Shown in pieces: positions 11,509 through 26,896 of a stretch of 32,000 nt of DNA. The notes under the pieces are model-generated. The model was not told the DNA's origin. It was given only the letters and a program-made list of their open reading frames with translations, and made no database searches. How positions within the stretch are numbered: position 1 is the first letter of the stretch; the number at the start of each line of letters is the position of its first letter. The position numbers and the translations under genes were made by a program. Location of the stretch: the NCBI RefSeq assembly GCF_000039765.1, contig NC_004460.2, forward strand, positions 300,001-332,000, written 5' to 3'. This DNA is from Vibrio vulnificus CMCP6. Its GTDB lineage: Bacteria; Pseudomonadota; Gammaproteobacteria; Enterobacterales; Vibrionaceae.

Positions 11509-11538
11509 CGAAAGGAGCCTAGCGCTCCTTTCGTTTTT
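11509..11538 (+). terminator. Intrinsic terminator after the SPOR gene
   Basis: CGAAAGGAGC / GCTCCTTTCG stem followed by TTTTT. Confidence 0.65.
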
Positions 11539-11656
11539 GTACAACAACTAGTCATTCAGTGGGTAAAAGCCATTTTTTACCAATAAATGACTGTACGAAT
11601 AGCAAGGTATCGCTATCATTGAGACAGCGTGTCTTCTATCACGGAAAGATTTAACA

Positions 11657-12652
11657 ATGATGAGAAATGTTCTACTTTTATGCGGCGGTGGTTCTTCAGA
11701 ACACGAAATTTCGCTGCTTTCTTCTGAATACCTTCAGCAACAACTTGGCTTAATTGAGAATGTAAATGTCCTAAAGGTTGAGATTAAGAACGAAGGTTGG
11801 TTTGACCAAAAAGAGAGACTTGTGTATCTCGATATCCATACGAAAAGCGTGAAAAGCGATGAGTTTAATGAATCGATACACATCGATTTCATTGTACCTT
11901 GTATTCATGGCTTTCCGGGTGAAACAGGGGATATTCAATCACTTTTTGAGCTTGCAGGTATTCCTTATCTGGGCTGTGGTCCTGAAGCTAGCAGTAACAG
12001 CTTCAATAAAATCACGTCGAAACTATGGTATGACGCGATTGGCATTCCTAACACACCGTATCTTTTCCTAACAGAGAACAACGAAGAGTCTCACCAGCTC
12101 AGTAGAGAGGCATTCGATAAATGGGGCAAACTGTTTGTCAAAGCGGCGAGACAGGGGTCATCTGTTGGTTGTTACAGTGTAACCAAAATAGAGCAGCTTT
12201 CTGATGCCATTGATAAAGCGTTCGGATTCTCTCATCAGGTATTGGTTGAAAAGGCAGTAAAACCAAGAGAATTAGAAGTTTCCGCATATGAGATGAACGG
12301 TCAACTTCATATTTCAAAGCCAGGTGAAATTATTGCTCCAGACGGCGCTTTTTACTCCTACGATGAGAAATACAGTGCGGGTAGCCATTCAATCACAGAA
12401 GTGGAAGCGAAAAACTTAACCGAACAGCAGCTAGCGACGATTCAACTGTGCAGCGAGAAAGTCTTTCGTCAGATGAACCTTCGTCATTTGTCTCGAATCG
12501 ATTTCTTCTTAACCAGTGAAGGAGAGATCTACCTTAATGAAGTGAATACCTTTCCTGGAATGACAAAAATTTCCATGTTCCCCAAAATGCTCCAACACAA
12601 TGGACATAAGTTTCATGAATTCCTAGCGGACTGCATTGAACGCTCACTTTAA
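11657..12652 (+). CDS. ddl: D-alanine--D-alanine ligase
   Basis: 331 aa ATP-grasp Ddl-type sequence (LLLCGGGSSEHEISLLSS..., ..GSSVGC.., ..LNEVNTFPGMT..). Confidence 0.9.
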   Translation: MMRNVLLLCGGGSSEHEISLLSSEYLQQQLGLIENVNVLKVEIKNEGWFDQKERLVYLDIHTKSVKSDEFNESIHIDFIVPCIHGFPGETGDIQSLFELAGIPYLGCGPEASSNSFNKITSKLWYDAIGIPNTPYLFLTENNEESHQLSREAFDKWGKLFVKAARQGSSVGCYSVTKIEQLSDAIDKAFGFSHQVLVEKAVKPRELEVSAYEMNGQLHISKPGEIIAPDGAFYSYDEKYSAGSHSITEVEAKNLTEQQLATIQLCSEKVFRQMNLRHLSRIDFFLTSEGEIYLNEVNTFPGMTKISMFPKMLQHNGHKFHEFLADCIERSL

Positions 12653-12948
12653 GCATTAAAGAAAATCGGCGCTTTTAACATTGTTTTTCAACAAAAAGCG
12701 CCGTTTTATAATCAGTAAATCATGGGAATTCAATTATCTAATCCGTCATTCTTTTTACGAAATAGCACCTTAAAAACCAGACAATACACCTACTAATATG
12801 TGATTGATTGAAGAGTATCTTCATGGTGGAAAAGGTTTTTTTTCATTTCATTGCACCAAAGCACGCTATTATAAGAATTTTATACTTGCTAAGCGTCTGA
12901 TTACTATTATGATTATAGTAAGACTTAATTAATAGATGATTCAGTTAC

Positions 12949-13323
12949 ATGGCTATATCTCATTACCGTGGTTTTAACTTACAGTCTGCACCAAATGATA
13001 CGAACATCTGGCAAGTAAAGATTAAGAATCGAGTGCTTCAAGGAAGCTTAAGTGCAGTGAAAAAGAGCATTGATTGGTGGTGCGATACTGCATCGATCAT
13101 TGATCCTAGAGAGTTTTCTTCGCTTGACAGAAAGCAAGAAGCGACAGGCTCTCCTCAGGCAGAAAACTTTAATGGTTTTGCCATTAAAAACGATACAGGT
13201 GAACCAAACGCTTGGTATTGTTTCTTTAATGGCAAACTCATTAAAGGTTCCAAAGCGGCTATTCAGCGACATATAGAAGCTTATTTGATCGCGAAACAAA
13301 AGGCCGAACAACAGAAGAAATAG
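12949..13323 (+). CDS. Hypothetical protein with an internal ~40-aa duplication
   Basis: 124 aa. The repeats are GFNLQSAPNDTNIWQVKIKNRVLQGSLSAVKKSI and GFAIKNDTGEPNAWYCFFNGKLIKGSKAAIQRHI. The stop lies 2 nt before the yciH ATG. Confidence 0.6.
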   Translation: MAISHYRGFNLQSAPNDTNIWQVKIKNRVLQGSLSAVKKSIDWWCDTASIIDPREFSSLDRKQEATGSPQAENFNGFAIKNDTGEPNAWYCFFNGKLIKGSKAAIQRHIEAYLIAKQKAEQQKK

Positions 13324-13325
13324 TA

Positions 13326-13637
13326 ATGACTCTTGTATATTCAACAGAAACAGGCCGAATCAAACCAGAAGAACCTAAAGCTTCGCGCCCAAAAGGCGAT
13401 GGTATTGTTCGAATTCAGCGAGAAACCAAAGGCCGAAAAGGCAAAGGGGTTTGCGTTGTCACTGGCTTGGATCTCGATGATGCTCCATTGAAGCTTCTCG
13501 CCGCAGAGTTGAAGAAAATCTGTGGTTGTGGTGGTAGTGTTAAAGATGGCAACATAGAGATTCAAGGTGATGCTCGTGACAAAATCAAAACGCATCTTGA
13601 AAAAAAAGGCATGAAAGTAAAATTTGCCGGCGGTTAA
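13326..13637 (+). CDS. yciH: SUI1-family translation initiation factor-like protein YciH
   Basis: 103 aa. LVYSTETGR... N-terminus and the SUI1 core (GIVRIQRETKGRKGKGVCVVTGL..., ..GGSVKDGNIEIQGD). Confidence 0.85.
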   Translation: MTLVYSTETGRIKPEEPKASRPKGDGIVRIQRETKGRKGKGVCVVTGLDLDDAPLKLLAAELKKICGCGGSVKDGNIEIQGDARDKIKTHLEKKGMKVKFAGG

Positions 13638-13641
13638 TTTC

Positions 13642-13667
13642 AAAGGAGCTTTCAAAGCTCCTTTTTT
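13642..13667 (+). terminator. Intrinsic terminator after yciH
   Basis: AAAGGAGCTT / AAGCTCCTTT stem followed by a T-run. Confidence 0.65.
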
Positions 13668-13729
13668 AATCTCGTTCAAAGTAAGCAGTTCACATTAAAC
13701 GACATAATGAATCAGCAATCGAAGCAACC

Positions 13730-13770
13730 AATATAGAACCTTAAATCTTTGATTAATAAGGTTCTATATT
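13730..13770. repeat. 41-bp inverted repeat (14-bp perfect arms)
   Basis: AATATAGAACCTTA (13730-13743) pairs with TAAGGTTCTATATT (13757-13770). The loop can extend the pairing (AATC/GATT). No clear T-run follows. Confidence 0.6.
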
Positions 13771-13952
13771 AGGTATTTTATGGTAAATCAGAATACTGTT
13801 AAATATGCATACTCTTATGAACCTAACAAAAACCTAGAAACACCAACACATGAAGTTAGCGTAGACCTATAACTCACAATAGGCAAGTGATTGGAAAGCA
13901 GGGTAAGTGATTGAAATAGATCTACTTATGAACTTAACTAAAAACCCGATTT

Positions 13953-13980
13953 ATTTAACATAACGTACATAATGCGCACC
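13953..13980 (-). other. dif: dif chromosome dimer-resolution site (XerC arm - 6-bp centre - XerD arm)
   Basis: The minus strand reads GGTGCGCATTA-TGTACG-TTATGTTAAAT. As I remember them, E. coli dif is GGTGCGCATAATGTATATTATGTTAAAT and V. cholerae dif1 is AGTGCGCATTATGTATGTTATGTTAAAT, so the XerD arm is identical and the XerC arm differs by 1 nt. Confidence 0.85.
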
Positions 13981-14228
13981 AAAGCATTGGTTTTTAACAT
14001 TTCAAATATTTATCGAAATCCCGCAAATTTTATCCAGCTAAAACAATCACATAATACAACATATTGCATTGTAAAACCGTTTCGTTATCTCAAGTTATTA
14101 AGGCTGCACTATGAAAAGAAATGAACAAAATAATTCTTTTCGTCATTTGATAGCCCTTGGCAATCAAAACCCCTCGCAGCAATCGAAAATAACCATTAAT
14201 AACGCTGATAATTTGAGAGGTTTATCAC

Positions 14229-14651
14229 ATGGATTTTGAAGCCTTTAACGTCTTATTCTGGCGAGTGTTTCCAAGTATCAAAGCTGGCGCGGAATACTTC
14301 CACGTTCAACCCGCGACCGTTCGCCGCTGGCTTTCGGGCTCGATACCCATCAACCCAATGGCTGAAAAGCTGGTAATCATCAAATCCCTTGGCTATTTAC
14401 CTAATGATATTCGCTGGCGTGGCTTTCGTATTGATGAAGCCCGCGCGGTACTCATTACCCCTAGCGGGCGCGAGTTTTCGCCCAAAGAGTTGGAAGCCTT
14501 CGCCTATCAAAAAGACGAGTATCAACACTTTCTTGAGCAATACGAACGGCCACAAAGCCCCAAATATTACCCCGCAAAAGAGAACATTTTACCCTTTAAA
14601 GGCGGTCGCCGGATGACTGCCGCGCCTTGGATACCAAGCAAATTGAAGTAA
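14229..14651 (+). CDS. Phage HTH protein, DUF3653-like; candidate Xer activation factor (XafT-like)
   Basis: 140 aa. An HTH-like segment (AGAEYFHVQPATVRRWLSG) is followed by RWRGFRIDEARAVLITPSGREFSPKELEAF. It is the only + strand gene at this end, ~250 bp from dif. The family call is from memory only. Confidence 0.45.
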   Translation: MDFEAFNVLFWRVFPSIKAGAEYFHVQPATVRRWLSGSIPINPMAEKLVIIKSLGYLPNDIRWRGFRIDEARAVLITPSGREFSPKELEAFAYQKDEYQHFLEQYERPQSPKYYPAKENILPFKGGRRMTAAPWIPSKLK

Positions 14652-14653
14652 CA

Positions 14654-14681
14654 AAAAGGCCGCAATTAAGCGGCCTTTTTT
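14654..14681. terminator. Bidirectional intrinsic terminator
   Basis: AAAAGGCCGC / GCGGCCTTTT hairpin flanked by A- and T-runs, between convergent genes. Confidence 0.65.
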
Positions 14682-14703
14682 CATCCAGTTTTTCAAGTAA
14701 CTA

Positions 14704-15024
14704 TCAACCCCAAGCTCTCAATGCTTCATCATTCAATAACTCTGCGTGGTTTCCTATGATTGTTAAATGAATATGGGCTGCTGTGCTGTCTAATTGAACT
14801 CCATTATCACCAACCTTTAGAGCCCAAGACTCTAAATCGAACTTGTTTTTTAATCGGTGGATAAACAGATAAGCTGTACCTGGCTGAATGTATTGTGTGC
14901 TGTACGTTACATCAACAAAGCCTTTGGTATTAAGTTCATCAACGTTACTTTTTATAAAATATTCTATTTCGTTTTGAATCTCTTCAGCTTGACCCAAAAA
15001 AAAGTCTGTGGCGTTTCTTAACAT
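14704..15024 (-). CDS. Hypothetical 106-aa protein; low-GC stand-alone cargo gene
   Basis: The ATG at 15024 has AAGGAG 7 nt upstream (the track start at 15045 lacks an SD). It is bracketed by terminators at 14654-14681 and 15095-15127. I recognise no family. Confidence 0.6.
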   Translation of the reverse strand: MLRNATDFFLGQAEEIQNEIEYFIKSNVDELNTKGFVDVTYSTQYIQPGTAYLFIHRLKNKFDLESWALKVGDNGVQLDSTAAHIHLTIIGNHAELLNDEALRAWG

Positions 15025-15094
15025 AGCATTACTCCTTTTAATCATCGCTATAAGCTTAGATATGGGGGTCTTAGCAATGAAAGCAACTGCATAA

Positions 15095-15127
15095 AGAAAA
15101 AAACCGCAATTATGCGGTTTTTTTTTC
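15095..15127. terminator. Intrinsic terminator ending the long minus-strand structural operon
   Basis: AAACCGCA-ATTA-TGCGGTTT hairpin with an A-run on one side and a T-run on the other. It overlaps the stop codon of the last operon gene. Confidence 0.6.
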
Positions 15128-15256
15128 TAGCTCTGTGATTCGGCTATCCAGCTTTTCGAGTGTGAGCTTTATCCAAGCTATATCGACACGCAGCGCAACC
15201 ACCGTTGCAATACTGGACGCCGCACCCGTCACCACGGCAATTATGATTGTTTCCAT
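15110..15256 (-). CDS. 48-aa membrane protein (TM + short coiled-coil tail)
   Basis: METIIIAVVTGAASSIATVVALRVDIAWIKLTLEKLDSRITELEKKTA. The start is uncertain (the track gives 15322). It overlaps the upstream gene. Confidence 0.4.
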   Translation of the reverse strand: METIIIAVVTGAASSIATVVALRVDIAWIKLTLEKLDSRITELEKKTA

Positions 15257-15456
15257 TCCTTGCGCACCGTTTCCCACAAACCCAACATAAGGGGAACGGT
15301 TGTACCAATCAATCCGCCCCATTGAATACCCGCTTCGCTCACGCTGGCGGTGATCAATTCAGGGCGACCTATCGCCAGCGTTGCCCCCGCTGCGACCAGT
15401 GCCAAGCCTTTTTTGGTTGAAGGCTCTTTTAGTCGCTCTTTAATCCATTTTTCCAT
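15241..15456 (-). CDS. 71-aa two-TM membrane protein
   Basis: Hydrophobic segments GLALVAAGATLAIG and GGLIGTTVPLMLGLW. Tightly packed within the operon. Confidence 0.55.
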   Translation of the reverse strand: MEKWIKERLKEPSTKKGLALVAAGATLAIGRPELITASVSEAGIQWGGLIGTTVPLMLGLWETVRKEWKQS

Positions 15457-15459
15457 GGT

Positions 15460-15822
15460 TCACCTATCCATTAACTGATTTGTTATAGCCACATTGACCA
15501 GCGCGTGATATTGCGGTTTAAGCTGACCGCCACGCTTGCCAAAGAGTTCTTTTAAATACGGTTGATATTGGGCCACTTTCCACAAGGTAAAATCGGCCTC
15601 TGGCGTTAATCGCTTTTCATCGTCCAGATAGAAATCGCGAATCATGAGCGGGGCCAGTTCAACGGGTTCCCACCCGTTAAACTTGGCTAAAAAATCGCTC
15701 AATACCTTGCCCGCCGTTTGGGTATTGTCTGCCGTCCATTTATCAAGTGACGCGGTCACACTGCCCCGCATCGCCCAGACTGCCACGGCAACCCCCATCA
15801 ACCACCACGCCGCGCGGCTCAT
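15460..15822 (-). CDS. 120-aa protein with an N-terminal membrane anchor/signal
   Basis: The in-frame ATG at 15822 gives MSRAAWWLMGVAVAVWAMRG... It overlaps (ATGA) the stop of an upstream micro-ORF. The 41 extra N-terminal residues of the track version are W/C/H-rich and overlap other genes. Confidence 0.5.
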   Translation of the reverse strand: MSRAAWWLMGVAVAVWAMRGSVTASLDKWTADNTQTAGKVLSDFLAKFNGWEPVELAPLMIRDFYLDDEKRLTPEADFTLWKVAQYQPYLKELFGKRGGQLKPQYHALVNVAITNQLMDR

Positions 15823-15908
15823 AGCTTGCCCGCTTGATTTAACTTGCTTACCACCATTGCACCAAGCACCGTGCCAATGACACTCACCGCAATATTGATT
15901 GCTATCAT
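15819..15908 (-). CDS. 29-aa TM micro-ORF (MIAINIAVSVIGTVLGAMVVSKLNQAGKL)
   Basis: It fills the gap between the 161-aa gene stop (15917) and the 15822 start and is ATGA-coupled to the downstream gene. It has no strong SD. Confidence 0.35.
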   Translation of the reverse strand: MIAINIAVSVIGTVLGAMVVSKLNQAGKL

Positions 15909-15916
15909 TTTGCCAT

Positions 15917-16402
15917 TCATGCCAGCGCCACCCCTTGGCGGGCATCGTCTAGGGTGTACCACCCGCGCCCGACTTCCATTACCGACATGGCATAGACAAT
16001 GCTTGCCAACAATGCGTTATCAGAAAGGTTAACTTGCGCATCCGGTGATACGCCCACTTGCGCCGCGACAAATTCCGCATAGTTGTCACTTTTGTTTTCA
16101 TTGCTTGGCGCAAAGCGGTGAATCAACTCACGAATGGAGTTCAAGCCGTGTTTGTTTTGATATGTTCGCAGCGTTCGAGCGCCAGCGCGAAAGCCGTACT
16201 TTGGCGCGCTAAAGGTTTCGAAACGCTTATCCACCGAGGGCGTTACCTTGCCTAACCAGTTATTCGAGCGGTTTTGCTCGATGTTTAACGGGTTATTGGC
16301 ACGGACGCCGCGCGGCTTAGTGAGATCAACTAAGTTTGATTTGCTGTTTTTCACGATTACCCCCAAAGCCAGCAAAGATAAAACAACCACCGCAACTTTC
16401 AT
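15917..16402 (-). CDS. 161-aa membrane-anchored protein, possible cell-wall (muralytic) enzyme
   Basis: N-terminal TM (VAVVVLSLLALGVIV), then RANNPLNIEQ..W.G, which resembles the NNPGNI-type motif I associate with small phage/virion peptidoglycan-acting proteins. This is a weak assignment from memory. Confidence 0.4.
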   Translation of the reverse strand: MKVAVVVLSLLALGVIVKNSKSNLVDLTKPRGVRANNPLNIEQNRSNNWLGKVTPSVDKRFETFSAPKYGFRAGARTLRTYQNKHGLNSIRELIHRFAPSNENKSDNYAEFVAAQVGVSPDAQVNLSDNALLASIVYAMSVMEVGRGWYTLDDARQGVALA

Positions 16403-16405
16403 TGC

Positions 16406-17038
16406 TTATTCACCTTGTGGTAATGACTTGTAACTTTCCGGTAAATCGTTTTCCATCGCTTCGCCATAATAGAAAATGGTTCCCGAAATTCTTGTGCATG
16501 TAAAACCAGACGCCGCGCTTGCGATTATTTTCGTTGGTTCGCTTAGCATAGGGTGAGGGTCTGCCGGATTGCCCCACGTCATAAGGCCAAGCGAAGTAAA
16601 ACCGCTACATTTCAAACGCGCGCCCCCGCCTACATCATCCAAGCGTGGCAACTTTTGAAGCTCTCCCAATTGCGCCGAAGCCCAATACAATGCACCAGCA
16701 CGGGCCACGCTTGGGTCGCCTGTTACCCAAACATCCAGATTTACAAAGAGGTTTAGAACGGGCTCATTCACATACGGCGATGAACCTTCATAATTTTTTG
16801 ACAACTTGGCCAACGATATTTTTTTCATTTCGTTACTTGAGCCAGTGCCTACAATCAGCGATTCCATACCCTGCGAAATTAGAATTGCTTCCGCAACTTC
16901 CAACTCTCCGCTTGCCCCTACTTTAAAGGGCAGCACTACAGGCCCGCCGCCCCCGACGTTTTCAAGCGCCTTTTCGACAGATTCGGCCAACGCTTTTAGC
17001 TTGTTTTCCGTGTTTCCATTGCCTAAATCAAAAGCCAT
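16406..17038 (-). CDS. 210-aa soluble structural protein (possible vertex/receptor-binding component)
   Basis: It is coupled to the upstream spike-like gene (TAA-AGC-ATG with a GGAGA SD). It has no TM, and I recognise no family. Confidence 0.45.
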   Translation of the reverse strand: MAFDLGNGNTENKLKALAESVEKALENVGGGGPVVLPFKVGASGELEVAEAILISQGMESLIVGTGSSNEMKKISLAKLSKNYEGSSPYVNEPVLNLFVNLDVWVTGDPSVARAGALYWASAQLGELQKLPRLDDVGGGARLKCSGFTSLGLMTWGNPADPHPMLSEPTKIIASAASGFTCTRISGTIFYYGEAMENDLPESYKSLPQGE

Positions 17039-17041
17039 GCT

Positions 17042-17749
17042 TTAAATCTCCAATACCGCAATGCTGTTTGCTGCATCGCCTGTTAACTGAATTTCGGCGG
17101 TTGTCTCAAGCTCCAGCTTTTCGCCCGCCTCTAACGGATATGCGCCCGCCACCGTCACCGCCGCCGTGTTACCGCTTAGCGCTTTAATGGTGATTTTCTT
17201 GCGCCCTGCGTTGGCCGGAATGGTGTAAGGCATCGCATGAACGCCCGCCGCCAGTGAAGCCGATTTTTTCAGCTCGACCGCTGGCAAGCTGGACACACCG
17301 ACCGATTGGCCCGCCGCGATGGTCATTGCTGGAATACTCGAAACGTCTAGCGATTGGCCCGCCGCCAGTTGCATTTCTGGCAAGCTGGATACCTTAACCG
17401 TTTGATTTGCTGCCAACTCGACCGCTGGCAAGCTCGATACGTCCACCGTTGGCAATGCGGAAACTTCCACCGCTGGCAGCTCTGACACGGCTACCGTGTC
17501 ACGTTGTGGCGGCACGTATTCACCAAAGCCAACTTTTAGCTTTACATCCCCTTCAACGCCGCGATTTTCGACCGTCACCACCCCCGCCAAGCGTTCGCTT
17601 TTGACTTGCGCCCCTTGCGTTAACACGTAGTAACCGCCGCTTTGCGTAGTGATAAGCAGCTCACCCGCTGCTTTTTCCACGAAAAGAAAGTCACCAATTG
17701 CGGTAAAGTTATCGCGCGCACCTGTTAACATTCGTTTTTCAAAGCTCAT
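17042..17749 (-). CDS. 235-aa repeat-containing protein, putative spike/fibre
   Basis: The central third consists of VSxLPxxx 8-mers and 16-mers, flanked by beta-rich N- and C-terminal domains. Confidence 0.5.
   Translation of the reverse strand: MSFEKRMLTGARDNFTAIGDFLFVEKAAGELLITTQSGGYYVLTQGAQVKSERLAGVVTVENRGVEGDVKLKVGFGEYVPPQRDTVAVSELPAVEVSALPTVDVSSLPAVELAANQTVKVSSLPEMQLAAGQSLDVSSIPAMTIAAGQSVGVSSLPAVELKKSASLAAGVHAMPYTIPANAGRKKITIKALSGNTAAVTVAGAYPLEAGEKLELETTAEIQLTGDAANSIAVLEI
17270..17488 (-). repeat. In-frame tandem repeat (8/16-residue units) inside the spike-like gene
   Basis: VSELPAVE VSALPTVD VSSLPAVELAANQTVK VSSLPEMQLAAGQSLD VSSIPAMTIAAGQSVG VSSLPAVELKK. At DNA level, ACCGCTGGCAAGCT(G/C)GA recurs. 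Confidence 0.75.
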
Positions 17750-17753
17750 TTGA

Positions 17754-18224
17754 TTAACTCCGTGTCATTAGGTACGCAATGGAGATAGCCGCGAACGCGC
17801 CAATGGCAAGCTTTTTGGTTAACTCCGCATCTTCACGCTGTTCATTGGCTCCGTTGTCTTGTTTGAACTTCGCCAACTCCATCACCGCATTGAGATTTTC
17901 CGCATTTTGCGCGGCCTGACTGCCTGCAAGCCCCGCCATCATCGACAAGTTTTCCGAGTTGGTCGCGCTGTAGGTTTTGAGCGCATCCTTTGAAAAATCC
18001 GTCACACTCTTAACGGCATCCCCCGCCACACTTCCAAGCGTGGTCATGGACAACTCCGCAAGACTTCCCGCCGCCTCAATCGCACCGTGGTCAGTTGCGG
18101 TTACGTTGAGCGTTGAGTTGTTAATCCCACTAATCGCGGTTCCAAGGTTGTCGCCGCTAATGGCGTTTTGACCTGAGTTATTACTCGTGGTCGTGGTGTT
18201 CTTAGAACTTGATTTACCACCCAT
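17754..18224 (-). CDS. 156-aa S/T/N/A-rich protein with a C-terminal TM anchor
   Basis: Low-complexity N-terminus (SSKNTTTTSNNSGQN) and a C-terminal LAIGAFAAISIAYLM. Confidence 0.55.
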   Translation of the reverse strand: MGGKSSSKNTTTTSNNSGQNAISGDNLGTAISGINNSTLNVTATDHGAIEAAGSLAELSMTTLGSVAGDAVKSVTDFSKDALKTYSATNSENLSMMAGLAGSQAAQNAENLNAVMELAKFKQDNGANEQREDAELTKKLAIGAFAAISIAYLMTRS

Positions 18225-18228
18225 ATTT

Positions 18229-18600
18229 TTAAACTCGCATTGTCAGCGCGGTCACTTCTTCGCTTGGCTGCTTCTCGTTGGTGTGCAAAGGCTTTACCAA
18301 CCGAGCCAGCGCGGGAAAATAGGTTTCAGCGCTGATACTGTTTAAACCCAATCGGCGCACAACGGGCGCGAGCTCTTGCATGGCTTTCACGACGCCAACC
18401 CCCGACACTCCCCACAAAAAATAGGAATCGCCGACAATCTCCCCCGCAATCGTGACGTCATACCCTTCACCGTGTATTTGGTAGAGGCTGACATTGCCCG
18501 CCGACACTTCACCCTTTAAGGCTTCGAAGTCTTGCGGGCATTTTCTAAACGCCACTTTGAGCCGTTCCAGCGCGCCCGCTGGCTCCGCTAACTGAATCAT
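18229..18600 (-). CDS. 123-aa soluble hypothetical protein
   Basis: No TM. It overlaps the upstream gene by 4 nt. Function unknown. Confidence 0.55.
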   Translation of the reverse strand: MIQLAEPAGALERLKVAFRKCPQDFEALKGEVSAGNVSLYQIHGEGYDVTIAGEIVGDSYFLWGVSGVGVVKAMQELAPVVRRLGLNSISAETYFPALARLVKPLHTNEKQPSEEVTALTMRV

Positions 18601-18806
18601 TTTCGATTCATCATCATGAACGCCAACGCCAAGACCACGCCGCCAATCAATAACGGACTTACCCCCGTAGGGCTTCCCATATTAATCGCGCCGACACTTT
18701 GGCCGCTGTTGTTGGTACTGGTTGCGGTTGACGGGCCAGCATCGCCGCCACTAATTGGCATTGAACCGCTATTCGTCAACCCGCCGCCGATAAGAGAACC
18801 CAACAT
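18597..18806 (-). CDS. 69-aa Gly-rich membrane protein
   Basis: C-terminal TM (LLIGGVVLALAFMMM). Its start abuts the stop of the 50-aa ORF. Confidence 0.55.
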   Translation of the reverse strand: MLGSLIGGGLTNSGSMPISGGDAGPSTATSTNNSGQSVGAINMGSPTGVSPLLIGGVVLALAFMMMNRK

Positions 18807-18959
18807 TTACGCCCCCTTCACTGCGTGTTTATAAACCAGATAACCGCCGCCCACTAAAGCGGCCCCCATGACTAACTTTTTTGTTGTGCTTCCGGTGAAA
18901 TAGCCCGCACCAAAGCCCGCCGCCGCACCGATAAGTGGATATAAAATAAAAGGCATCAT
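18807..18959 (-). CDS. 50-aa two-TM Gly-rich micro-protein
   Basis: MMPFILYPLIGAAAGFGAGYFTGSTTKKLVMGAALVGGGYLVYKHAVKGA. It has a TAAGGGGGA-ATG junction with the upstream gene. It is below the ORF-track cutoff. Confidence 0.5.
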   Translation of the reverse strand: MMPFILYPLIGAAAGFGAGYFTGSTTKKLVMGAALVGGGYLVYKHAVKGA

Positions 18960-18965
18960 TCCCCC

Positions 18966-19259
18966 TTACTTACTTTTCAATGCGACAATCAAACCAATGA
19001 GCAACAAGCCACCCACGCCATACATGAGATATTTCTCATTCATGGATGCCGCCGGATTGCTTGGCGGCACTGGTGCGCCATTTGGCTGCACGGGTTGTTG
19101 CTCTGCTGGCTTGCGGTTTTCTTCCGGCGCGGCACTTTCCGCCTTTTGCGTGTTGGTCACTTTTGGGTCGAGTTTTCCGCTTACGTAATTGCCCGCCGCA
19201 TCCGTGACCGTCCCTGCAAAATTGGTTAGGTTTTCGCCCAGTGAATCCCAAAGAGACAT
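18966..19259 (-). CDS. 97-aa membrane protein (Pro-rich middle, C-terminal TM)
   Basis: C-terminal YGVGGLLLIGLIVAL. It has a TAAGGGGGCAAA-ATG junction with the capsid gene. Confidence 0.55.
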   Translation of the reverse strand: MSLWDSLGENLTNFAGTVTDAAGNYVSGKLDPKVTNTQKAESAAPEENRKPAEQQPVQPNGAPVPPSNPAASMNEKYLMYGVGGLLLIGLIVALKSK

Positions 19260-19268
19260 TTTGCCCCC

Positions 19269-20111
19269 TTACGCCGTGGCGGTCGGTAGCGCTTTGACTT
19301 GCTCGACTGCTTCAAACACAACCGGAACCGCGCCCGCTTGTGATTTTTCCAGCTCAAACGCGAGTTGCTGGCTTGCTGCCGTGTTCAACACACCGTCAGC
19401 ACCGAAGCCGTAACGGGTAAAGTCCACACTAAACCAGCCCGCATTTTGCTCTTGACCGCAAGCGGCAAGGTCGTAAGCGTTGTCTAGTTTGTTGGCGTTG
19501 TATTCTTCGATGTTGTCACGCAACACACGCACACGCTCAACCGACTCATCCATAAAATGCGCACGTTTTAGGTTTAAGAACGGGCTACGCTCTGCAAAGT
19601 CAAACGGGATACGGCCCGCCGCTGGCGCGTTCCAAGTCAGCTCAATGATGCGCGGCAAGTAGAAACGCTCGCTTTGTGCTGGCAGCACATGAGCACGGGC
19701 GCGGATACTTGGCACCGCTGGCGCGCCTTCGCTTGGCGTTTGTTTGAGTTGCACGTAAATAAACCAGATTTCGCCTTGCAGCGTCACGAGATCAGTTTGA
19801 CGAACACCAACTTTTGTACGGTATTCTGATTCACCAAAATCAATGACGTATCGGCCTTGCTCGTTGTAGGTCTTTTTGTGCTTTTGGATGTTGACGAACG
19901 TTTTACCGCTGGCGCTCATAATTGGACGGCCATTCAACTGGATTTCAATTCGTTCAATATCTTCCGGATTGGTGATATTTGTGACCAACTCAATGCTGTG
20001 ATAAGTCGGGCCCGTTACCAAACGTAGATTTGCACGTTGGCCCCAGCCAACGCCTTCCATTGGGTCTAGCTCTTTTGCGCGTGGTGCAAATGGTGTGCTG
20101 ATAATTTCCAT
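19269..20111 (-). CDS. Putative major capsid protein (PM2 P2-like, double jelly-roll candidate)
   Basis: 280 aa from the ATG at 20111 (GGGG 6 nt upstream; the track uses GTG 20117). The size, beta-rich composition and position between the ATPase and the membrane-protein cluster fit the corticovirus layout. The assignment is not verified by alignment. Confidence 0.5.
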   Translation of the reverse strand: MEIISTPFAPRAKELDPMEGVGWGQRANLRLVTGPTYHSIELVTNITNPEDIERIEIQLNGRPIMSASGKTFVNIQKHKKTYNEQGRYVIDFGESEYRTKVGVRQTDLVTLQGEIWFIYVQLKQTPSEGAPAVPSIRARAHVLPAQSERFYLPRIIELTWNAPAAGRIPFDFAERSPFLNLKRAHFMDESVERVRVLRDNIEEYNANKLDNAYDLAACGQEQNAGWFSVDFTRYGFGADGVLNTAASQQLAFELEKSQAGAVPVVFEAVEQVKALPTATA

Positions 20112-20124
20112 ACTCACCCCCGCC

Positions 20125-20235
20125 TTAACCGATCACGTCTTCGACTGCATCAACGTTGTTTGATGCCCAAACCACACCCGCCGCGATTAGCGCGCTAAGT
20201 CCGAGCAAAATTAAATTGCCTTTTGTTAATTTCAT
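20125..20235 (-). CDS. 36-aa TM micro-protein
   Basis: MKLTKGNLILLGLSALIAAGVVWASNNVDAVEDVIG. GGAG SD present. The stop lies 13 nt before the capsid ATG. Confidence 0.45.
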   Translation of the reverse strand: MKLTKGNLILLGLSALIAAGVVWASNNVDAVEDVIG

Positions 20236-20252
20236 TGCTTTACGCTCCAAAT

Positions 20253-20281
20253 AAAAAAACCGCTGTTCATTAGCGGTTTTT
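20253..20281 (-). terminator. Intrinsic terminator-like hairpin between the ATPase and capsid modules
   Basis: The minus strand reads AAAACCGCT-AATGAAC-AGCGGTTTTTTT. It lies only 17 nt upstream of the next start codon. Confidence 0.5.
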
Positions 20282-20341
20282 ATCTTTGCCCGATATTCAC
20301 AACGGTTTGTAAATGCGGATTTAGAATCCTTGATTCTATTT

Positions 20342-20357
20342 TGTGAACTTATTCACA
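20342..20357. promoter_or_regulatory. CRP-like palindrome TGTGA-N6-TCACA
   Basis: TTTTGTGAACTTATTCACATTT has both core half-sites perfect. It sits immediately after the ATPase stop codon. Confidence 0.4.
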
Positions 20358-20358
20358 T

Positions 20359-21027
20359 TTACCAGCGTATTAGCCCCGCTTCGTACCCTTTGCCGTTCTG
20401 GTGCAAGTAGTGAAGCGGTTGTAAATCATTGATAACCGCCGAAGGAATGCCCGTCATTTTTTCTAAATACACGGCACTTGCTCCGGTCTTTTGCATCATG
20501 ACGTACATGTGTTGACAGTTATCAATAATGGTTTTTGAAACTTCTTGCCCACGCTGGAAAAGGTTTATTGTGTGGATGCCATACGAACGCCCCAAGCGCA
20601 ACAACTTGCCATGATAGCCCGTCGCTTTGCCCGCCGTTTCGCTGTGCTCTGCAACTTCCTCACAAACCACTTTCAACGGTTTGACATGATGCCCGTCACC
20701 ACACCCCCAAACGATTTGACAAAACTTGTCAAAATCGGCGGGTTTTGTGTCGCCTTTTTTTAAATCCGGTTGCCACGCAATTTTAAATCCTTGCTTGGTT
20801 TTTCGGCCTGCAACCACCGCTTGAGCAAAGCGGCTAAACGAGTGATACACGCGCACCACTCGCCCCAGCAACTCACCGTCATATTCTCGCTTTGGGTCAA
20901 AAATCACGACTTGGTCAGTCGCTTTTACTAAGCGTTTTTTGACAAGCGAGCTTTTGCCACACCCCGACATTCCCACAACGGCGGTATGCTCATTTTTCAA
21001 TGCGTTGTTATTGCGTCGCGGCTGCAT
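20359..21027 (-). CDS. Genome-packaging ATPase candidate (PM2 P9 / PRD1 P9-like size class)
   Basis: 222 aa from the ATG at 21027 (AGGGGG 5 nt upstream). Walker A is GMSGCGKSS, followed by a hydrophobic strand plus Asp (QVVIFDP). It has no TM, unlike Zot/pI of filamentous phages. Confidence 0.65.
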   Translation of the reverse strand: MQPRRNNNALKNEHTAVVGMSGCGKSSLVKKRLVKATDQVVIFDPKREYDGELLGRVVRVYHSFSRFAQAVVAGRKTKQGFKIAWQPDLKKGDTKPADFDKFCQIVWGCGDGHHVKPLKVVCEEVAEHSETAGKATGYHGKLLRLGRSYGIHTINLFQRGQEVSKTIIDNCQHMYVMMQKTGASAVYLEKMTGIPSAVINDLQPLHYLHQNGKGYEAGLIRW

Positions 21028-21499
21028 GAGCACCCCCTTGCGCCTTTGCCGCCTGAATGATTGCGGCGCGTTTTAGCGCTTCTTCTTTCTGAATTTCTTG
21101 CATCATGGCGTATTTGCCAAAGCCAATAATTGACACGGTCGCTAGCAAGGTGAGTTCAGGCCCATACTCTGCCAACCACGGCGGCGGCTCCGCACCGTAT
21201 TTGATCAACACGGGGGCGATTGCTCCGGTTAGTTGGGTTTCTTCTTGCTCATCGAATGACAAACGTTTGTCTTTGGCTTTTAGAATCCCATTGACAAAAC
21301 CCACCCCTTTTGCCGCAAATGGCAGCACCGCCTCAAGCGTTGCGGCTTGCTGCTTTAGCGCTGCTTCCCGTTGCGCCTTATCTTCAATCGTGATTTCGGC
21401 GTCTTCTTCCATTTCCAATTGATTTAGAAAATCCTTTTCCTCATCGGTGTATTCTTTTTCTAAATCCGTTGCCTGTTCGTTTAGTCGTTCTTCATCCAT
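21008..21499 (-). CDS. 163-aa protein: acidic coiled-coil N-terminus, hydrophobic C-terminal half
   Basis: MDEERLNEQATDLEKEYTDEEKDF... followed by ..LTLLATVSIIGFGKYAM. It has an 8-nt overlap with the upstream gene. Confidence 0.55.
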   Translation of the reverse strand: MDEERLNEQATDLEKEYTDEEKDFLNQLEMEEDAEITIEDKAQREAALKQQAATLEAVLPFAAKGVGFVNGILKAKDKRLSFDEQEETQLTGAIAPVLIKYGAEPPPWLAEYGPELTLLATVSIIGFGKYAMMQEIQKEEALKRAAIIQAAKAQGGAHAAATQ

Positions 21500-21848
21500 T
21501 GTTTGCCCCTAGCACTTTGGCGGTTACATTTCCCAACAAAAAGCAAAAGCCACCAATGAGAAACTTTGCGGCGTTGCTGTTTGCTGACGTTGTTGTTTTG
21601 TTGTTTTGCGGTTCCGGTTCCGGTACGGGCTCTGTCACTGGCTCCGGCGTTGGTTTAAGCATTTGCTCGACTTCTTCCAACGGCTTGTAAGTGGCAAAAT
21701 ACGCTTGAATATCTTCACCCGTTCGACAATCCGGCCCACACTTACACCGAGCCCTTAAAAAGCGCGCGCGCTTGCCTTGCCCCTGAATGATTTTTTTAGG
21801 TGTTTTGCATTTCGAGCAAGGGAGATAACCTAAAATTTCTTCATCCAT
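21492..21848 (-). CDS. 118-aa protein: N-terminal Cys4 zinc-ribbon-like motif, Pro/Glu linker, C-terminal TM
   Basis: CSKC...(17 aa)...CKCGPDC, then PTPEPVTEPVPEPEP, then FLIGGFCFLLGNV. Confidence 0.55.
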   Translation of the reverse strand: MDEEILGYLPCSKCKTPKKIIQGQGKRARFLRARCKCGPDCRTGEDIQAYFATYKPLEEVEQMLKPTPEPVTEPVPEPEPQNNKTTTSANSNAAKFLIGGFCFLLGNVTAKVLGANNG

Positions 21849-22071
21849 TGCTCACCTCTTGCAGCTTTTTCACTTCTTGTTTCAAGGTTTCGATTTCTTC
21901 ATTCTGCACTTGCAGCAAAACGATGATTTTTCGCCCAAAGGAATTGAAAAAATCCCGAATCGGGTTTAGAAACTTTCCAAAAATCGGGTTGCCTACGTGC
22001 GCGCCGATTTCCTCTACCGCGCCCGCCATTTCTTTTTTAATTTCGCCGAGTAATAAAGCCTTTTTATTCAT
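21841..22071 (-). CDS. 76-aa hypothetical protein
   Basis: AAGGAAG SD upstream. Coiled-coil-like C-terminus (LQVQNEEIETLKQEVKKLQE). Confidence 0.5.
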   Translation of the reverse strand: MNKKALLLGEIKKEMAGAVEEIGAHVGNPIFGKFLNPIRDFFNSFGRKIIVLLQVQNEEIETLKQEVKKLQEVSNG

Positions 22072-22102
22072 TTCTAGCCACTTCCTTTTATTTCAATTGC
22101 TC

Positions 22103-24091
22103 TTAGTGATACAAAGCTCCCGCGCGCTGATACAAATCCCAAAACGCCGAACGCTCCGCCTCGATAACTTCCGGCCTGATGTTGTAGGGCTCAAACGGCT
22201 CTGCCTTGACCGACTCCCACCAAGCTTGATTGTCTAAAAATTGCTTATATTGCATTTGATATTGCTCTTGCGCCGCTTCGCGCAAATCTTCCATTTCTAT
22301 ATCGCTGTAAATCGGTTTCATCGACCAGCCACGCGCACCCGCCGCCCATTTCAAAAACTGGTTAACCCTACGCTCTGCGTTTTTCTCAAACGTGATTGAA
22401 AAGCGGTTATTGGCGCTGACATGTAGCCCCGCTGCTTTTGTTGCTGCTCTTGCGTTTTTCAAACCGTTTTCAATTCGCTTGATTTTGGTTTGCAATTTCG
22501 TTTGTAAATCCACATCACCTTTTGCTTTGGCGATTGCTGCCGCTTCAATGCTTTTTTCTTTGGCTTGCTCATAGCGCTTGATGCTGCGCTTAATTGGCGC
22601 TTTCCATTGGTCGAGCTTGTAGCCTAACTCGCTGATAATGCCCGCCATGTTATCCGCTTCGAAACTCAGCAAGGTTTCCCACTTTGGCGCACGGCTACAC
22701 GCTGCCATGTTGTAACGATTGCCCCGAATAAGCCCTTGATTGGCGTTTTCTCCTTTGGCTGCATAGCCCACCGCTTTAATGATGTAAGTCCCTGCCGCCT
22801 CTGGCTTTTTGATGCGCTCAACATGCGCAAAGCCATTACCCCAAAGGCTCTCAATTTTTCCAGCCCACGCACTAAAAAGCGCTTGCGGCATTTCCCAATC
22901 CATCAACAAGTGAACGTGCGGATTCGGCTCACCGTCCTCATTGGCTGGACACTCCGCCACCCAAAGGTAATGAAAGTCCGATTTATCCGGCAATACGCTT
23001 GCTTTGACCGCTGGCACTGGACAAAACAAACGCCCGCTTTCGCTGTCGCGCTCTGTCACGTAGGCCGGAAAGCCGCGCTTTCTCATCTTTTTGAGGCCAT
23101 TAATAAAACGCGATACCTCCGCGCCTATCGTGGTGTGCATGTTCACCACTTCCCAAACCTTTTCAGGCTTGGCAAAAAGTGGCGTATATGGCCCCGCAAT
23201 TTCGCCGCTTTCGTTCATGGCCTTGATGTTGCGGATTTTTCCCTTGTACCACTCAAACGCGCTATATGGCCCCGCCACCTCTGACACACACACGCCAAAA
23301 TTTTGCTTGAACCCAACAGGCGAAAACAAAAGCCCCTCATCGGTGAGCGCGGAACCGTCAGCCACACGGCGGCGGCGTTCTTCATCAAACGTCAGCGTGA
23401 TGAACGTTTTGAACCCGCCATGCTTCACCGCGACATACGCGCCGGACTCAAAAATATTTTTCACCGCGCGGGCGGTTAATTTTTCCGTGAAGCGGTCGCC
23501 GCTTTGCTGCTCCGGTGCATTGCTGGCTGGCGTTTCAATCACTTGCTGAATTCGGTATTGCTGCGACCAATCGCGCTTTTGCAATTGCACCTTTACCAGT
23601 GGCTTATCTGCCACCAATGACCGCTTTTTATTGCTGTTTAGTGCAGTGCCGCGCGATACCGCCGAAAATGACGCGCTGTAGTGCGCGCTGTGATATTTTT
23701 CAGGATTTAATACTAGGGGCGCTTTTATCGACTTTCTCAGCGTTGCCAAGCGTTGGCGGAAGCGTTTAGAGGCTTCATAACCCACCTTTCCCGCTGTCCG
23801 ACTTTTGCGCCCTTTGACTAGCCTATTATCTCCGGCACTTCGTGCCGCCGCTTCGCGCAGGTGTCCCGCGATCGTTTTAATGCGTAACGGGGTGAGTTGC
23901 TCTGCATCTTTTAAGATGGTTTGTTGCTGTTCATTCCACTGAGAAAAATCGGATGCAAAAAAACCGCTACGAATAGCGGTAAGGTTCTTTCTTGCCTTAT
24001 CGGATTGCCGAAGCGCTCCAACTGCGTATAGAACTGTGTTTTTATCCAGTGGCGCAAATTGGCTTGCGCTAAACTTTGCTATTTGGTTCAT
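22103..24091 (-). CDS. Rolling-circle replication initiator (HUH endonuclease superfamily Rep)
   Basis: 662 aa. Motif 1-like FITLTF, motif 2 (HUH) PHVHLLMDW and motif 3 with Tyr residues TYIIKAVGYAAKG occur in the correct order. The size is close to PM2 P12 as I recall it. Confidence 0.75.
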   Translation of the reverse strand: MNQIAKFSASQFAPLDKNTVLYAVGALRQSDKARKNLTAIRSGFFASDFSQWNEQQQTILKDAEQLTPLRIKTIAGHLREAAARSAGDNRLVKGRKSRTAGKVGYEASKRFRQRLATLRKSIKAPLVLNPEKYHSAHYSASFSAVSRGTALNSNKKRSLVADKPLVKVQLQKRDWSQQYRIQQVIETPASNAPEQQSGDRFTEKLTARAVKNIFESGAYVAVKHGGFKTFITLTFDEERRRRVADGSALTDEGLLFSPVGFKQNFGVCVSEVAGPYSAFEWYKGKIRNIKAMNESGEIAGPYTPLFAKPEKVWEVVNMHTTIGAEVSRFINGLKKMRKRGFPAYVTERDSESGRLFCPVPAVKASVLPDKSDFHYLWVAECPANEDGEPNPHVHLLMDWEMPQALFSAWAGKIESLWGNGFAHVERIKKPEAAGTYIIKAVGYAAKGENANQGLIRGNRYNMAACSRAPKWETLLSFEADNMAGIISELGYKLDQWKAPIKRSIKRYEQAKEKSIEAAAIAKAKGDVDLQTKLQTKIKRIENGLKNARAATKAAGLHVSANNRFSITFEKNAERRVNQFLKWAAGARGWSMKPIYSDIEMEDLREAAQEQYQMQYKQFLDNQAWWESVKAEPFEPYNIRPEVIEAERSAFWDLYQRAGALYH

Positions 24092-24286
24092 CTATGCAAA
24101 CACCATAAAGCGGCGGTTTTTGTCTATCTCAATCACCGCCGTATTACCTGCCATTGATTTAACTGCGTTTCCGGTGTGATTCTCACACTCTGCAATTGCG
24201 CGAAAGAAATTGCGCGAAGGCTTGAACGGCAACGGCTCACCCGTTGGTAAACATTTGTTGTTATCCCAGATTTCAACCGTTGCCAT
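24092..24286 (-). CDS. 64-aa hypothetical protein
   Basis: Its stop TAG directly abuts the Rep ATG. Confidence 0.45.
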   Translation of the reverse strand: MATVEIWDNNKCLPTGEPLPFKPSRNFFRAIAECENHTGNAVKSMAGNTAVIEIDKNRRFMVFA

Positions 24287-24290
24287 ATGA

Positions 24291-24467
24291 TCACCCCACT
24301 GACGCCCAGTTAAAAATAAAGGTCATGCAACCAACCACTGCCCAAGCCGACACAATTGCATTTCCTAAATCACTAAAACTAAAGATAAAAGGTGTTGGGT
24401 TGTAATCACGCCCCATCAAGAAACAAAAAAAGCCAATAAGGAACACCCCTAGAATTGAAAGGCTCAT
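24291..24467 (-). CDS. 58-aa two-TM micro-protein
   Basis: MSLSILGVFLIGFFCFLMGRDYNPTPFIFSFSDLGNAIVSAWAVVGCMTFIFNWASVG. ATGA overlap with the upstream 177-aa gene. It is below the ORF-track cutoff. Confidence 0.45.
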   Translation of the reverse strand: MSLSILGVFLIGFFCFLMGRDYNPTPFIFSFSDLGNAIVSAWAVVGCMTFIFNWASVG

Positions 24468-24997
24468 TGAACTCTCTCCCCAAGCTCTCTCAATCCACCT
24501 CTAGGCGAATTCAAATCCTCTAATTGGTCATTCCATGCAAAGAAACCTTTGCATTTTGGATGCGACACTAACGAATCCGCCGGATATTTCTCGATAACTT
24601 CTACCTGTTCACCCGCCTTAATAATTAAGTCAGTATGAATATGATGATCACATCTAAGAATTTTCTTAACTGCATGAGAAGATTCCGCGCCATCAACGGC
24701 CAATGCCTCCGGCGCTTCCTCTTGCTTGCGGATTTGGTTTCTATTTCGCTGTTCAATGAGCTTTAATCTCATTTTTAAATTCGTTTTTAGATTTGCGGCA
24801 TCTTCAAATCTAAGTGTCCCCCACCGATTTTTAATAACACGTTCAATCAGTGTGCAAAGCTTTACTGCTCGTACTGGCGATAATATTGACTGTTGAATCT
24901 CATCCAACACAATAAAAGCGCCATTAAGCGAACCGCGCTTAAATGCATCTTCCGTTTCAACAACTAGCTTTCTAAATTCTTTTGATGATTTAATCAT
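24464..24997 (-). CDS. 177-aa hypothetical early protein
   Basis: Low-GC ORF with no TM. I recognise no family. Confidence 0.55.
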   Translation of the reverse strand: MIKSSKEFRKLVVETEDAFKRGSLNGAFIVLDEIQQSILSPVRAVKLCTLIERVIKNRWGTLRFEDAANLKTNLKMRLKLIEQRNRNQIRKQEEAPEALAVDGAESSHAVKKILRCDHHIHTDLIIKAGEQVEVIEKYPADSLVSHPKCKGFFAWNDQLEDLNSPRGGLRELGERVQ

Positions 24998-24998
24998 G

Positions 24999-25205
24999 CT
25001 ACACCCCCACGCTTTGAACGTTTGATCGGCGTATCATGGCAAGCTGATAAGCGCGCTTAAATTCCGCCTGACCTTTGCGAGAAAAGCGATAATCTTTGCC
25101 GCCGGACTTCTTACACTGGTAGCCGTTGGGGAAATATTTCTGTTTGAGGTTTTCGAGAATGTTGAGCCCTGTATCAGTGGGCTGATGTGAATGTGTTCTT
25201 TCCAT
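24999..25205 (-). CDS. 68-aa basic protein, first gene of the leftward operon (Cro/regulator-like position)
   Basis: GGAGG lies 7 nt upstream of the ATG at 25205. I prefer it over the overlapping 96-aa ORF 25034..25324. Confidence 0.5.
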   Translation of the reverse strand: MERTHSHQPTDTGLNILENLKQKYFPNGYQCKKSGGKDYRFSRKGQAEFKRAYQLAMIRRSNVQSVGV

Positions 25206-25346
25206 GTTCTAGCCTCCGCAAGCCGTTTCACATTTGTTTCGCTAATACGATATGGCAAGTTTTTTGTAGGCGCAATTAGCTTGCGGTAGTGAAACGAACA
25301 AAATGATCGCCTATGATTTAACAAATTGCGGACGGAGATAAACTCA

Positions 25347-25613
25347 ATGATGAACTACACAAATGCACTTTTAGACCGCCTAAAAGCCAAGCTAGAACTG
25401 GGCTCAGACTATCAATTAGCTAAAGTTTTAGAGGTTGGTACTAGTAGAATCAGCAACTACCGCAACGGGCGCAGTGTTCTAGATTGGAATATAGCGTTTA
25501 AAATCGCCGATTTGTTAGAAGAAGATGATCAAAAAGTCGTCTTTGGATTGCTTGAGGATAAATACTCAAACCCTCGCCTAATCAATGCCTTACAAGAGGG
25601 CGCGCCCCATTAG
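25347..25613 (+). CDS. HTH transcriptional regulator, repressor-like, divergent from the phage operon
   Basis: An HTH-like segment (SDYQLAKVLEVGTSRISNYRNGRS) is present. The ATG at 25347 has GGAG 9 nt upstream (the track uses TTG 25326). The stop lies 5 nt before the right att site. Confidence 0.6.
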   Translation: MMNYTNALLDRLKAKLELGSDYQLAKVLEVGTSRISNYRNGRSVLDWNIAFKIADLLEEDDQKVVFGLLEDKYSNPRLINALQEGAPH

Positions 25614-25618
25614 CGCCC

Positions 25619-25646
25619 ATTTACCACATCGTACATAATGCGCACT
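25619..25646 (-). other. dif-like hybrid site (intact XerC arm and centre, degenerate XerD arm)
   Basis: The minus strand reads AGTGCGCATTA-TGTACG-ATGTGGTAAAT. The XerD arm has 3/11 mismatches to TTATGTTAAAT. It is in the same orientation as dif at 13953-13980. Confidence 0.75.
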
Positions 25647-26740: not shown

Positions 26741-26896
26741 TTACTTTGAACTTTGAGCTTTGTGCTCTGCCCTAATCTTTTCCGCGATGATTTTTATCGC
26801 TTGGGCAGTACTCATGCCTTCAGCCATTAGCTTCTGGATTTCTTCGACTGCTCTTTGTTGTTCTTGATGAGATAGCGGTGGGAGATCGTCAAACAT
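26741..26896 (-). CDS. yoaH: UPF0181 family small protein (YoaH-like)
   Basis: The 51-aa product [51 protein letters not shown] parallels E. coli YoaH ([34 protein letters not shown]...). AAGGAG SD present. It is below the ORF-track cutoff. Confidence 0.75.

Follow-up and report, generated by a model that had tools for sequence, protein, structure and literature searches.

A PM2/NO16-like temperate prophage at dif2 of Vibrio vulnificus chromosome II, with attachment sites that point to TLC-type Xer recombination

A double-jelly-roll prophage between two dif-like sites

The window, by which we mean the whole 32,000-nucleotide stretch of Vibrio vulnificus CMCP6 DNA analyzed here, carries an island of 11,638 bp (13981..25618) between two 28-bp dif-like sites. 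The GC content of the island is 0.484, compared with 0.425 and 0.427 in the flanks. The chromosomal flank genes are yciH on the left (13326..13637, plus strand; Pfam SUI1, E=5e-22) and yoaH on the right (26741..26896, minus strand), the latter encoding a 51-aa UPF0181 protein that is annotated PF03701 as the same 51-aa gene in all related loci. The island is a PM2/NO16-like double-jelly-roll (corticovirus-type) temperate prophage inserted at dif2, and its circular genome is predicted to be 11,666 bp. Its gene set is complete and intact, and includes genes for a major capsid protein with the double jelly-roll of PM2 P2 (19269..20117, minus strand; P2_N E=2.4e-44, P2_C E=5.6e-39, phrog_8536 E=2.6e-88), a packaging ATPase of the FtsK/HerA P-loop type (20359..21033, minus strand; phrog_2666 E=2e-39, DUF87 E=1e-6), a 662-aa rolling-circle-type replication initiator, Rep (22103..24091, minus strand; REP_ORF2-G2P E=2.5e-7, phrog_38601 E=1.6e-129), and an endolysin-like lysis protein (15917..16402, minus strand; phrog_873 endolysin, E=6.8e-50), together with small membrane proteins.

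The two terminal genes are those of P15 and P16, both on the plus strand. P15 (14229..14651, 140 aa) is a XafT-like DUF3653 protein encoded 248 bp from the XerC arm of the att site; it matches the full Pfam PF12375 model (positions 1-66) with E=3.3e-18 and 66 bits against a cut-off of 22.4. P16 (25347..25613, 88 aa when read from the ATG) is a RstR-like HTH repressor whose stop codon lies 5 bp before the right-hand site. It matches phrog_4441 with E=9e-30 and HTH_3 weakly, and the ORF opens at a TTG at 25326, the 88-aa form being on record as a called gene. P15 is annotated as 'S-adenosylhomocysteine hydrolase' both in UniRef (CMCP6) and in the GenBank record of phage NO16 (MH730557.1, 3558-3989). 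A sequence search of the PDB with P15 found no XafT-like structure, and its matches to adenosylhomocysteinase were at chance level (phmmer E=0.024); the label looks like a propagated misannotation, which this chance similarity probably explains.

Between P15 and the lysis genes is a variable slot (window 14704-15945) that holds a 113-aa cargo ORF here (14704..15045, minus strand); by comparison with L011-L020, most siblings have an ORF of 106 aa at this place, and L015 has one of 230 aa. The position of the slot is that of the phage hypervariable region, 'pHVR', of PMC12715192. The 113-aa ORF had no Pfam or PADLOC match, and PADLOC detected no defence genes among the cargo ORFs. Nor did any of the 20 element ORFs scanned, a set that covers all but three of 50-64 aa, match a recombinase or integrase family in Pfam or PHROGs, and the coding density leaves no room for a further gene of at least 150 aa. 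A phage integrase had been considered, as an ISME J 2024 study of tailless prophages reports such enzymes, and was rejected given that the element contains no recombinase ORF.

The left-hand site, attL (13953..13980), reads ATTTAACATAA-CGTACA-TAATGCGCACC and the right-hand site, attR (25619..25646), reads ATTTACCACAT-CGTACA-TAATGCGCACT, both on the plus strand and in the same orientation, exactly as an earlier note on this DNA had recorded. The 16-bp core CGTACATAATGCGCAC occurs at just 2 places in the window, even when up to 2 mismatches are allowed, and the expectation by chance is 0 matches (100 shuffles). When the left arm of attR was recounted against the canonical XerD arm, 3 of its 11 bases were mismatched (positions 6, 9 and 11). 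All three lie in the centre-proximal half and leave the outer ATTTA intact, again in agreement with the earlier count; given the composition of the window, matching 8/11 bases at a predetermined position has p ~0.002. The two sites are not chance matches. The centre CGTACA is identical at 6/6 positions in attL, attR and every empty dif2. Since attL matches ATTTAACATAA(N)6TAATRCGHASY, the consensus given for Vibrio dif in PMC12715192, it is, as judged from its sequence, the retained functional dif2.

A GC-rich hairpin, GGGCGC-GCCCCATTA-GCGCCC, abuts the degenerate arm of attR at window 25598-25618. The repressor gene ends inside this structure, with its stop codon in the loop, and the hairpin may be the repressor terminator or an accessory feature of attP. 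NO16 has no obvious counterpart of this hairpin.

The host locus, the empty site and the origin of the arms

An identical YciH is encoded on chromosome II records of V. vulnificus, including that of YJ016 (BA000038.2, 879-899 kb of 1,857 kb) and CP009985.1 (958-978 kb of 1,838 kb), and in the lysogen CP015513.1 the element itself is located at 893-905 kb of 1,882 kb. The locus thus falls at 47-53% of 3 complete chromosome II records and is therefore mid-replicon. The GC skew is +0.01 to the left of the site and -0.06 to -0.08 to the right, with the sign flipping at the site, and the sole KOPS motif in the window (GGGNAGGG) is on the right side, on the minus strand, pointing at the site. The skew flip and the single motif agree, weakly, with a chromosome II terminus. 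The earlier note had allowed that the true dif might be found elsewhere; the mid-chromosome position, the skew flip and the polarity of the window's single KOPS motif all fit this site, and we conclude that the target is dif2, the dimer-resolution site of V. vulnificus chromosome II.

The empty site that had been predicted, ATTTAACATAACGTACATAATGCGCACT, was found between yciH and yoaH in related genomes, where it is exact, terminal T included, in 6 phage-free V. vulnificus loci. Three other dif2 sites, 2 of them beside other insertions, differ from it by 1 base in the XerC arm (…GCGTACT, …ACGCACT). When the element was excised in silico by joining window 1-13979 to 25646-32000, the product gave one 17,011-bp match to the phage-free locus L006 at 99.14% identity, running across the junction.

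The origin of each arm could be followed through natural alleles at 19 other junctions. In 9 other lysogen loci, attL consists of the canonical XerD arm, CGTACA and TAAT[A/G]CGCACC; the terminal C of its XerC arm is found in 9/9 of these loci and an additional phage-specific A in 8/9. The attR arm ATTTACCACAT followed by CGTACA is invariant in 9 other dif2 lysogen loci, and the XerC arm of attR tracks the dif2 allele of the host or that of a resident inovirus. In the same-contig pairs L016/L028 and L020/L025, two discriminating bases separate the two XerC arms, and therefore the arms have been exchanged rather than homogenized. This allele tracking bears out the assignment of arms made from the CMCP6 sequence only, in which attL is composed of the chromosomal XerD arm and the phage-derived XerC arm, and attR of the phage-derived, degenerate XerD-side arm and the chromosomal XerC arm.

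The chromosome also carries an inverted dif-like site, GTTCTATATTA-GGTATT-TTATGGTAAAT (13761..13788, plus strand), outside the prophage and 164 bp to the left of dif2, with a good XerD arm and a poor XerC arm. It serves filamentous prophages of other strains as a target or partner site. It is present in every strain, including those that are phage-free, and is separated from dif2 by a spacer of which there are two unrelated alleles, of 88 bp and 164 bp (comparison loci: L001 around 10430-10460 and 19158-19300; L003/L006 10313-10660). In YJ016 and L002, filamentous prophages with Rep_trans/DUF1293 genes are inserted within the inverted site after its 'GG' and not in dif2 proper. The arrangement of inverted site, spacer and dif is reminiscent of a hairpin attP of the CTX type that has stayed behind in the chromosome.

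V. vulnificus dif2 is a hotspot for arrays of Xer-exploiting elements (L015/L026, L021, L023, L031, L174/L175). Inoviruses flank the tailless prophage in these arrays, those on the XerD-arm side being later arrivals and those on the XerC-arm side earlier ones, and internal array junctions have 7-bp centres, for example ACTTAACATAA-GCCCGCA-TAATGCGCACT. The XerC arm of attR in L021 (TAATGCGAAGT) appears to derive from the adjoining inovirus. In addition, a gene for an IS-type transposase (HTH_23/28/29/32) lies within a few hundred bp of dif2 or attR on the XerC-arm side, before yoaH, in L009, L022, L025, L029 and L030.

The phage attachment site and the route of integration

Joining the two phage-derived arms gives a predicted P16-P15 junction that reads ...GCGCCC-ATTTACCACATCGTACATAATGCGCACC-AAAGCATTGG..., and a 40-mer across it spans CCACATCGTACATAATGCGCACCAAAGCATTGG. 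An exact search for the predicted attP (GGTGCGCATTATGTACGATGTGGTAAAT, then the degenerate form ATTTACCACNNNNTACATAATRCGCACC) gave 0 matches in viral, genome and metagenome contigs, and no excised circle of this exact phage was found in viral, genome and metagenome collections. Looking up Rep yielded fragmentary Logan contigs and no locus with both att sites. The contigs L018 (11.76 kb), L175 (11.5 kb) and L174 (15.7 kb) were considered as circular phage genomes and rejected, as they begin in chromosomal DNA or at an array junction. The Logan contig SRR8466848_497 (L071) ends at window 25645, the last base common to attR and the predicted attP; the next base, T/C, tells the two apart. The end could be an assembly-graph branch from co-existing attP and attR, which we take as a weak hint and not as evidence.

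Although the attP proposed by the earlier note is itself absent from the collections for this phage, a site identical to it at 25/28 positions occupies the same place in NO16, an isolated phage with a circular genome of 10,594 bp (MH730557). The NO16 site, GTTTACCACAT-TATACA-TAATGCGCACC (3280-3307), follows P16 by 5 bp and precedes P15 by 250 bp, compared with 5 and 248 bp in the window, and the 3 differing bases are the outermost arm base and two bases of the centre. The surrounding intergenic and coding DNA is 63-70% identical, and protein identity is 62% for P15, 66% for P16 (fNo16_0006), 36% for Rep and 21% for the capsid proteins; by whole-element megablast against sequenced phages only one 64-bp match was obtained, relatives being visible at the protein level only. 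Given that the att site is kept at 25/28 amid DNA that is 63-70% identical, the odd arm is conserved as part of a lysogeny module that the two phages share, and is not the result of decay. Among the P15 relatives checked in IMG/VR, a dif-like site was found 168-291 bp upstream of the gene in 31/31 cases, and at ~258-276 bp in 29/31.

The phage centre equals the centre of its target dif at 6/6 positions in the window prophage, in L027 and in NO16. TATACA, the centre in NO16 and L027, is what 99 species representatives of the Vibrionaceae have at the centre of their chromosome I dif, and it differs from CGTACA solely at two bases on the XerD side. At the boundary of arm and centre, the dif2-targeted phage described here has ATCG, and the phages targeting chromosome I dif have ATTA (NO16) and GCTA (L027). 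L027 contains a sibling prophage with an identical 88-aa repressor and an attR, ATTTACCACGC-TATACA-TAATGCGCACT, at 6273-6300; its right flank carries matP, a lon-like gene, fabA and rmf, which is the context of the chromosome I terminus, and is syntenic with that locus. One lysogeny module thus appears to be aimed at either chromosome through a 4-bp difference where the arm meets the centre.

What is known of the TLCΦ activator provides a framework for interpreting these sites. [quoted passage not shown] It binds XerD, and the crossover that it activates is complete, independent of FtsK and begun by XerD; the gene for XafT adjoins the XerC arm of TLCΦ attP, and many genomes cluster DUF3653 genes beside dif (PMC6744903). 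[quoted passage not shown] 2022, PMC9226527). XafT-driven recombination tolerates deviation, the G at position 5 and the T at position 1 being the bases that matter most to it, and deviating XerD arms escape FtsK-driven excision (PMC9226527). In attR the inner XerD arm is changed from TTATG to ATGTG by its 3/11 mismatches. By the published V. cholerae rules, the arm ATGTGGTAAAT is predicted to bind XerD weakly and to escape FtsK; it keeps 8/11 canonical bases, so that XerD may still bind it, and its innermost base is A, not the preferred T. Read from the centre outwards, the arms are ATGTG-GTAAAT in the window, ATGTG-GTAAAC in NO16, GCGTG-GTAAAT in L027 and AAAGG-GTTAAT in the more distant L066; TTATG is broken and G5 kept in 4/4 of these variants.

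Taken together, the data identify the two sites as the attL and attR of a PM2/NO16-like temperate phage, which probably entered dif2 by a TLC-type Xer crossover. As reconstructed, the circular dsDNA genome carries a single attP of 28 bp, located between P16, the repressor gene, and P15, the DUF3653 gene, and made up of a canonical XerC arm, a centre identical to that of dif2 at 6/6 positions and the conserved degenerate XerD-side arm. Recombination of attP with dif2 joined the chromosomal XerD arm to the phage XerC arm, forming an attL that fits the dif consensus, and the phage degenerate arm to the chromosomal XerC arm, forming attR. Host XerC and XerD, neither of which is encoded in the window, would perform a complete crossover, with XerD acting first under activation by the XafT-like P15 instead of FtsK, as in the 'D pathway' of TLCΦ. 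The resulting attL would go on resolving chromosome dimers, and FtsK would not excise the prophage at cell division, since attR lacks the inner TTATG. Because the DUF3653 gene, with its XafT domain, adjoins the XerC arm, the element looks like a TLC-type rather than a CTX-type exploiter of Xer, and a P15-activated, XerD-first crossover is the route that we favour with reasonable confidence.

A different order of strand exchange has to be weighed. In a XerC-first reaction of the VGJΦ or CTXΦ kind, a Holliday junction would form without an activator and be resolved by replication, and P15 would be a transcription regulator only. XerC has basal FtsK-independent activity and is used by most known integrative mobile elements exploiting Xer, or IMEXs (PMC6744903), the XerC arm of attP is canonical, P15 is called a transcriptional regulator with ~29% identity to XafT in PMC12715192, and the final att sites would be identical under either pathway. 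We nevertheless consider this order unlikely. The DUF3653 gene is beside the XerC arm as in TLCΦ, all variant arms keep the G5 that is important for XafT-driven recombination (PMC9226527), and the centres change together with the target dif at bases on the XerD side, where an exchange by XerC alone should not require a match. In VGJ-type integration, homology of the centre is reportedly confined to the XerC side and a XerC-only exchange is resolved by replication. The centre studied here is identical at 6/6 positions, so its homology is not confined to that side, a configuration that is compatible with a XerC-first reaction. The label 'TLC/VGJ-type' in the earlier note merges two mechanisms, of which the evidence favours TLC; the distinction from CTX stood, given the DUF3653 gene and the lack of an inverted partner.

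One could envisage, with about equal grounds for belief and for doubt, that the P16-attP-P15 cassette is a portable XafT-driven, XerD-first module that is retargeted between the two Vibrio chromosomes by changes of 2-4 bases where the arm meets the centre, and whose arm is selected to retain G5 without TTATG. The cassette is common to capsid modules that are otherwise distant (capsid proteins 21% identical). If this proves true, the prophage would be, among icosahedral phages with dsDNA, the first one shown to follow the TLCΦ pathway.

That the right-hand site is a decayed duplicate of dif, and the element an immobile remnant, would agree with the failure to recover attP or a circular form from the collections searched, but we regard it as very improbable: the gene set is complete and intact, presence and absence of the element occur on ~99%-identical flanks with base-precise junctions, siblings reside at chromosome I dif and at other array positions, the 'decayed' arm is conserved in the free infectious phage NO16, and the contig end at the base where attR and attP diverge is a weak hint of a co-existing attP. 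Least credible of all is a CTX-type reaction, in which a ssDNA intermediate would fold two inverted dif-like sites into a hairpin attP and recombine irreversibly with dif2; a rolling-circle-type Rep makes ssDNA intermediates plausible and inoviruses at the same locus show the order inverted site, spacer and dif, yet the hairpin is strongly disfavoured because the attP region as reconstructed offers no inverted partner (it holds neither a second dif-like site nor any inverted match of at least 8 nt to the 28-mer), the actual attP of NO16 is a single duplex-type site, and the inverted site at 13761-13788 is chromosomal and present without the phage too.

Relation to known systems

The prophage and its class are already published, the former having been catalogued in 2007 and the latter described in 2023-2025. 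Krupovic and Bamford (2007, PMC1950889) reported a corticoviral prophage on CMCP6 chromosome 2, described it as 'linearized between gene XV and XVI' and noted that homologues of these two PM2 genes flank it. In the portions of that text drawn on here, XerC/D is mentioned only as a CTXΦ precedent, and the att sites and the dif target are not identified. The window element is apparently this prophage, or is indistinguishable from it at Rep and P15, because these two proteins are identical to the CMCP6 proteins AAO07265.1 ('Replication protein') and AAO07248.1, respectively. The reconstruction in the earlier note is correct, but it reproduces published knowledge. [quoted passage not shown] The three 28-mers and P15 are ready substrates for assays of XerCD and XafT-like activators on double-jelly-roll phages.

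The closest class is that of the 140 Vibrio 'dif-type DJR prophages' of Ma and Zhang (Commun Biol 2025, PMC12715192), in which one junction regenerates dif. They have the same PM2-type capsid and ATPase, no integrase, terminal p15 (a xafT homologue) and p16 (rstR-like) genes, the same dif-like attP between p15 and p16, hybrid attL and attR sites that regenerate dif, and a cargo slot by p15; at the level of sequence, the window element shows every feature that defines this class. Its attR arm (…CACAT) does not fit the full-length motif NYKNWMCATAA given there, and the element probably falls in the 'right-armed 17-bp' class of that study. XerCD integration had been proposed from dif-like sites for the NO16-like 'Asemoviridae' (Kalatzis et al. 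2023, PMC9966536); the target here is dif2 (CGTACA), as opposed to the chromosome I type (TATACA) in NO16. In V. cyclitrophicus, a few tailless prophages were located at the two chromosomal dif sites by the ISME J 2024 study, which reported phage integrases in many dif-targeting tailless prophages and judged the mechanism for those at dif 'inconclusive'. The structural module described here is ~60% identical to that of some V. cyclitrophicus prophages and very distant from that of NO16.

Insertion at the host dif, direct-orientation dif-like flanks and the absence of an element integrase are shared with IMEXs in general, and the gonococcal genetic island (GGI) of Neisseria is counted among the closest known systems. 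The resemblance to TLCΦ of V. cholerae and its activator XafT (Midonet et al. 2014, 2019; Miele et al. 2022) comprises a duplex attP in which a canonical XerC arm and a target-homologous centre are combined with a non-canonical XerD arm, the DUF3653 gene by the XerC arm, and the regeneration of dif on one side. TLCΦ is, however, a filamentous satellite, whereas the genes of the window prophage are those of a membrane-containing icosahedral dsDNA phage, and the XerD arm of TLCΦ, compared by its description, is far more degenerate than the 8/11 match seen here. XerD-first catalysis, which has been demonstrated for TLCΦ, would by this likeness be expected of the window prophage as well.
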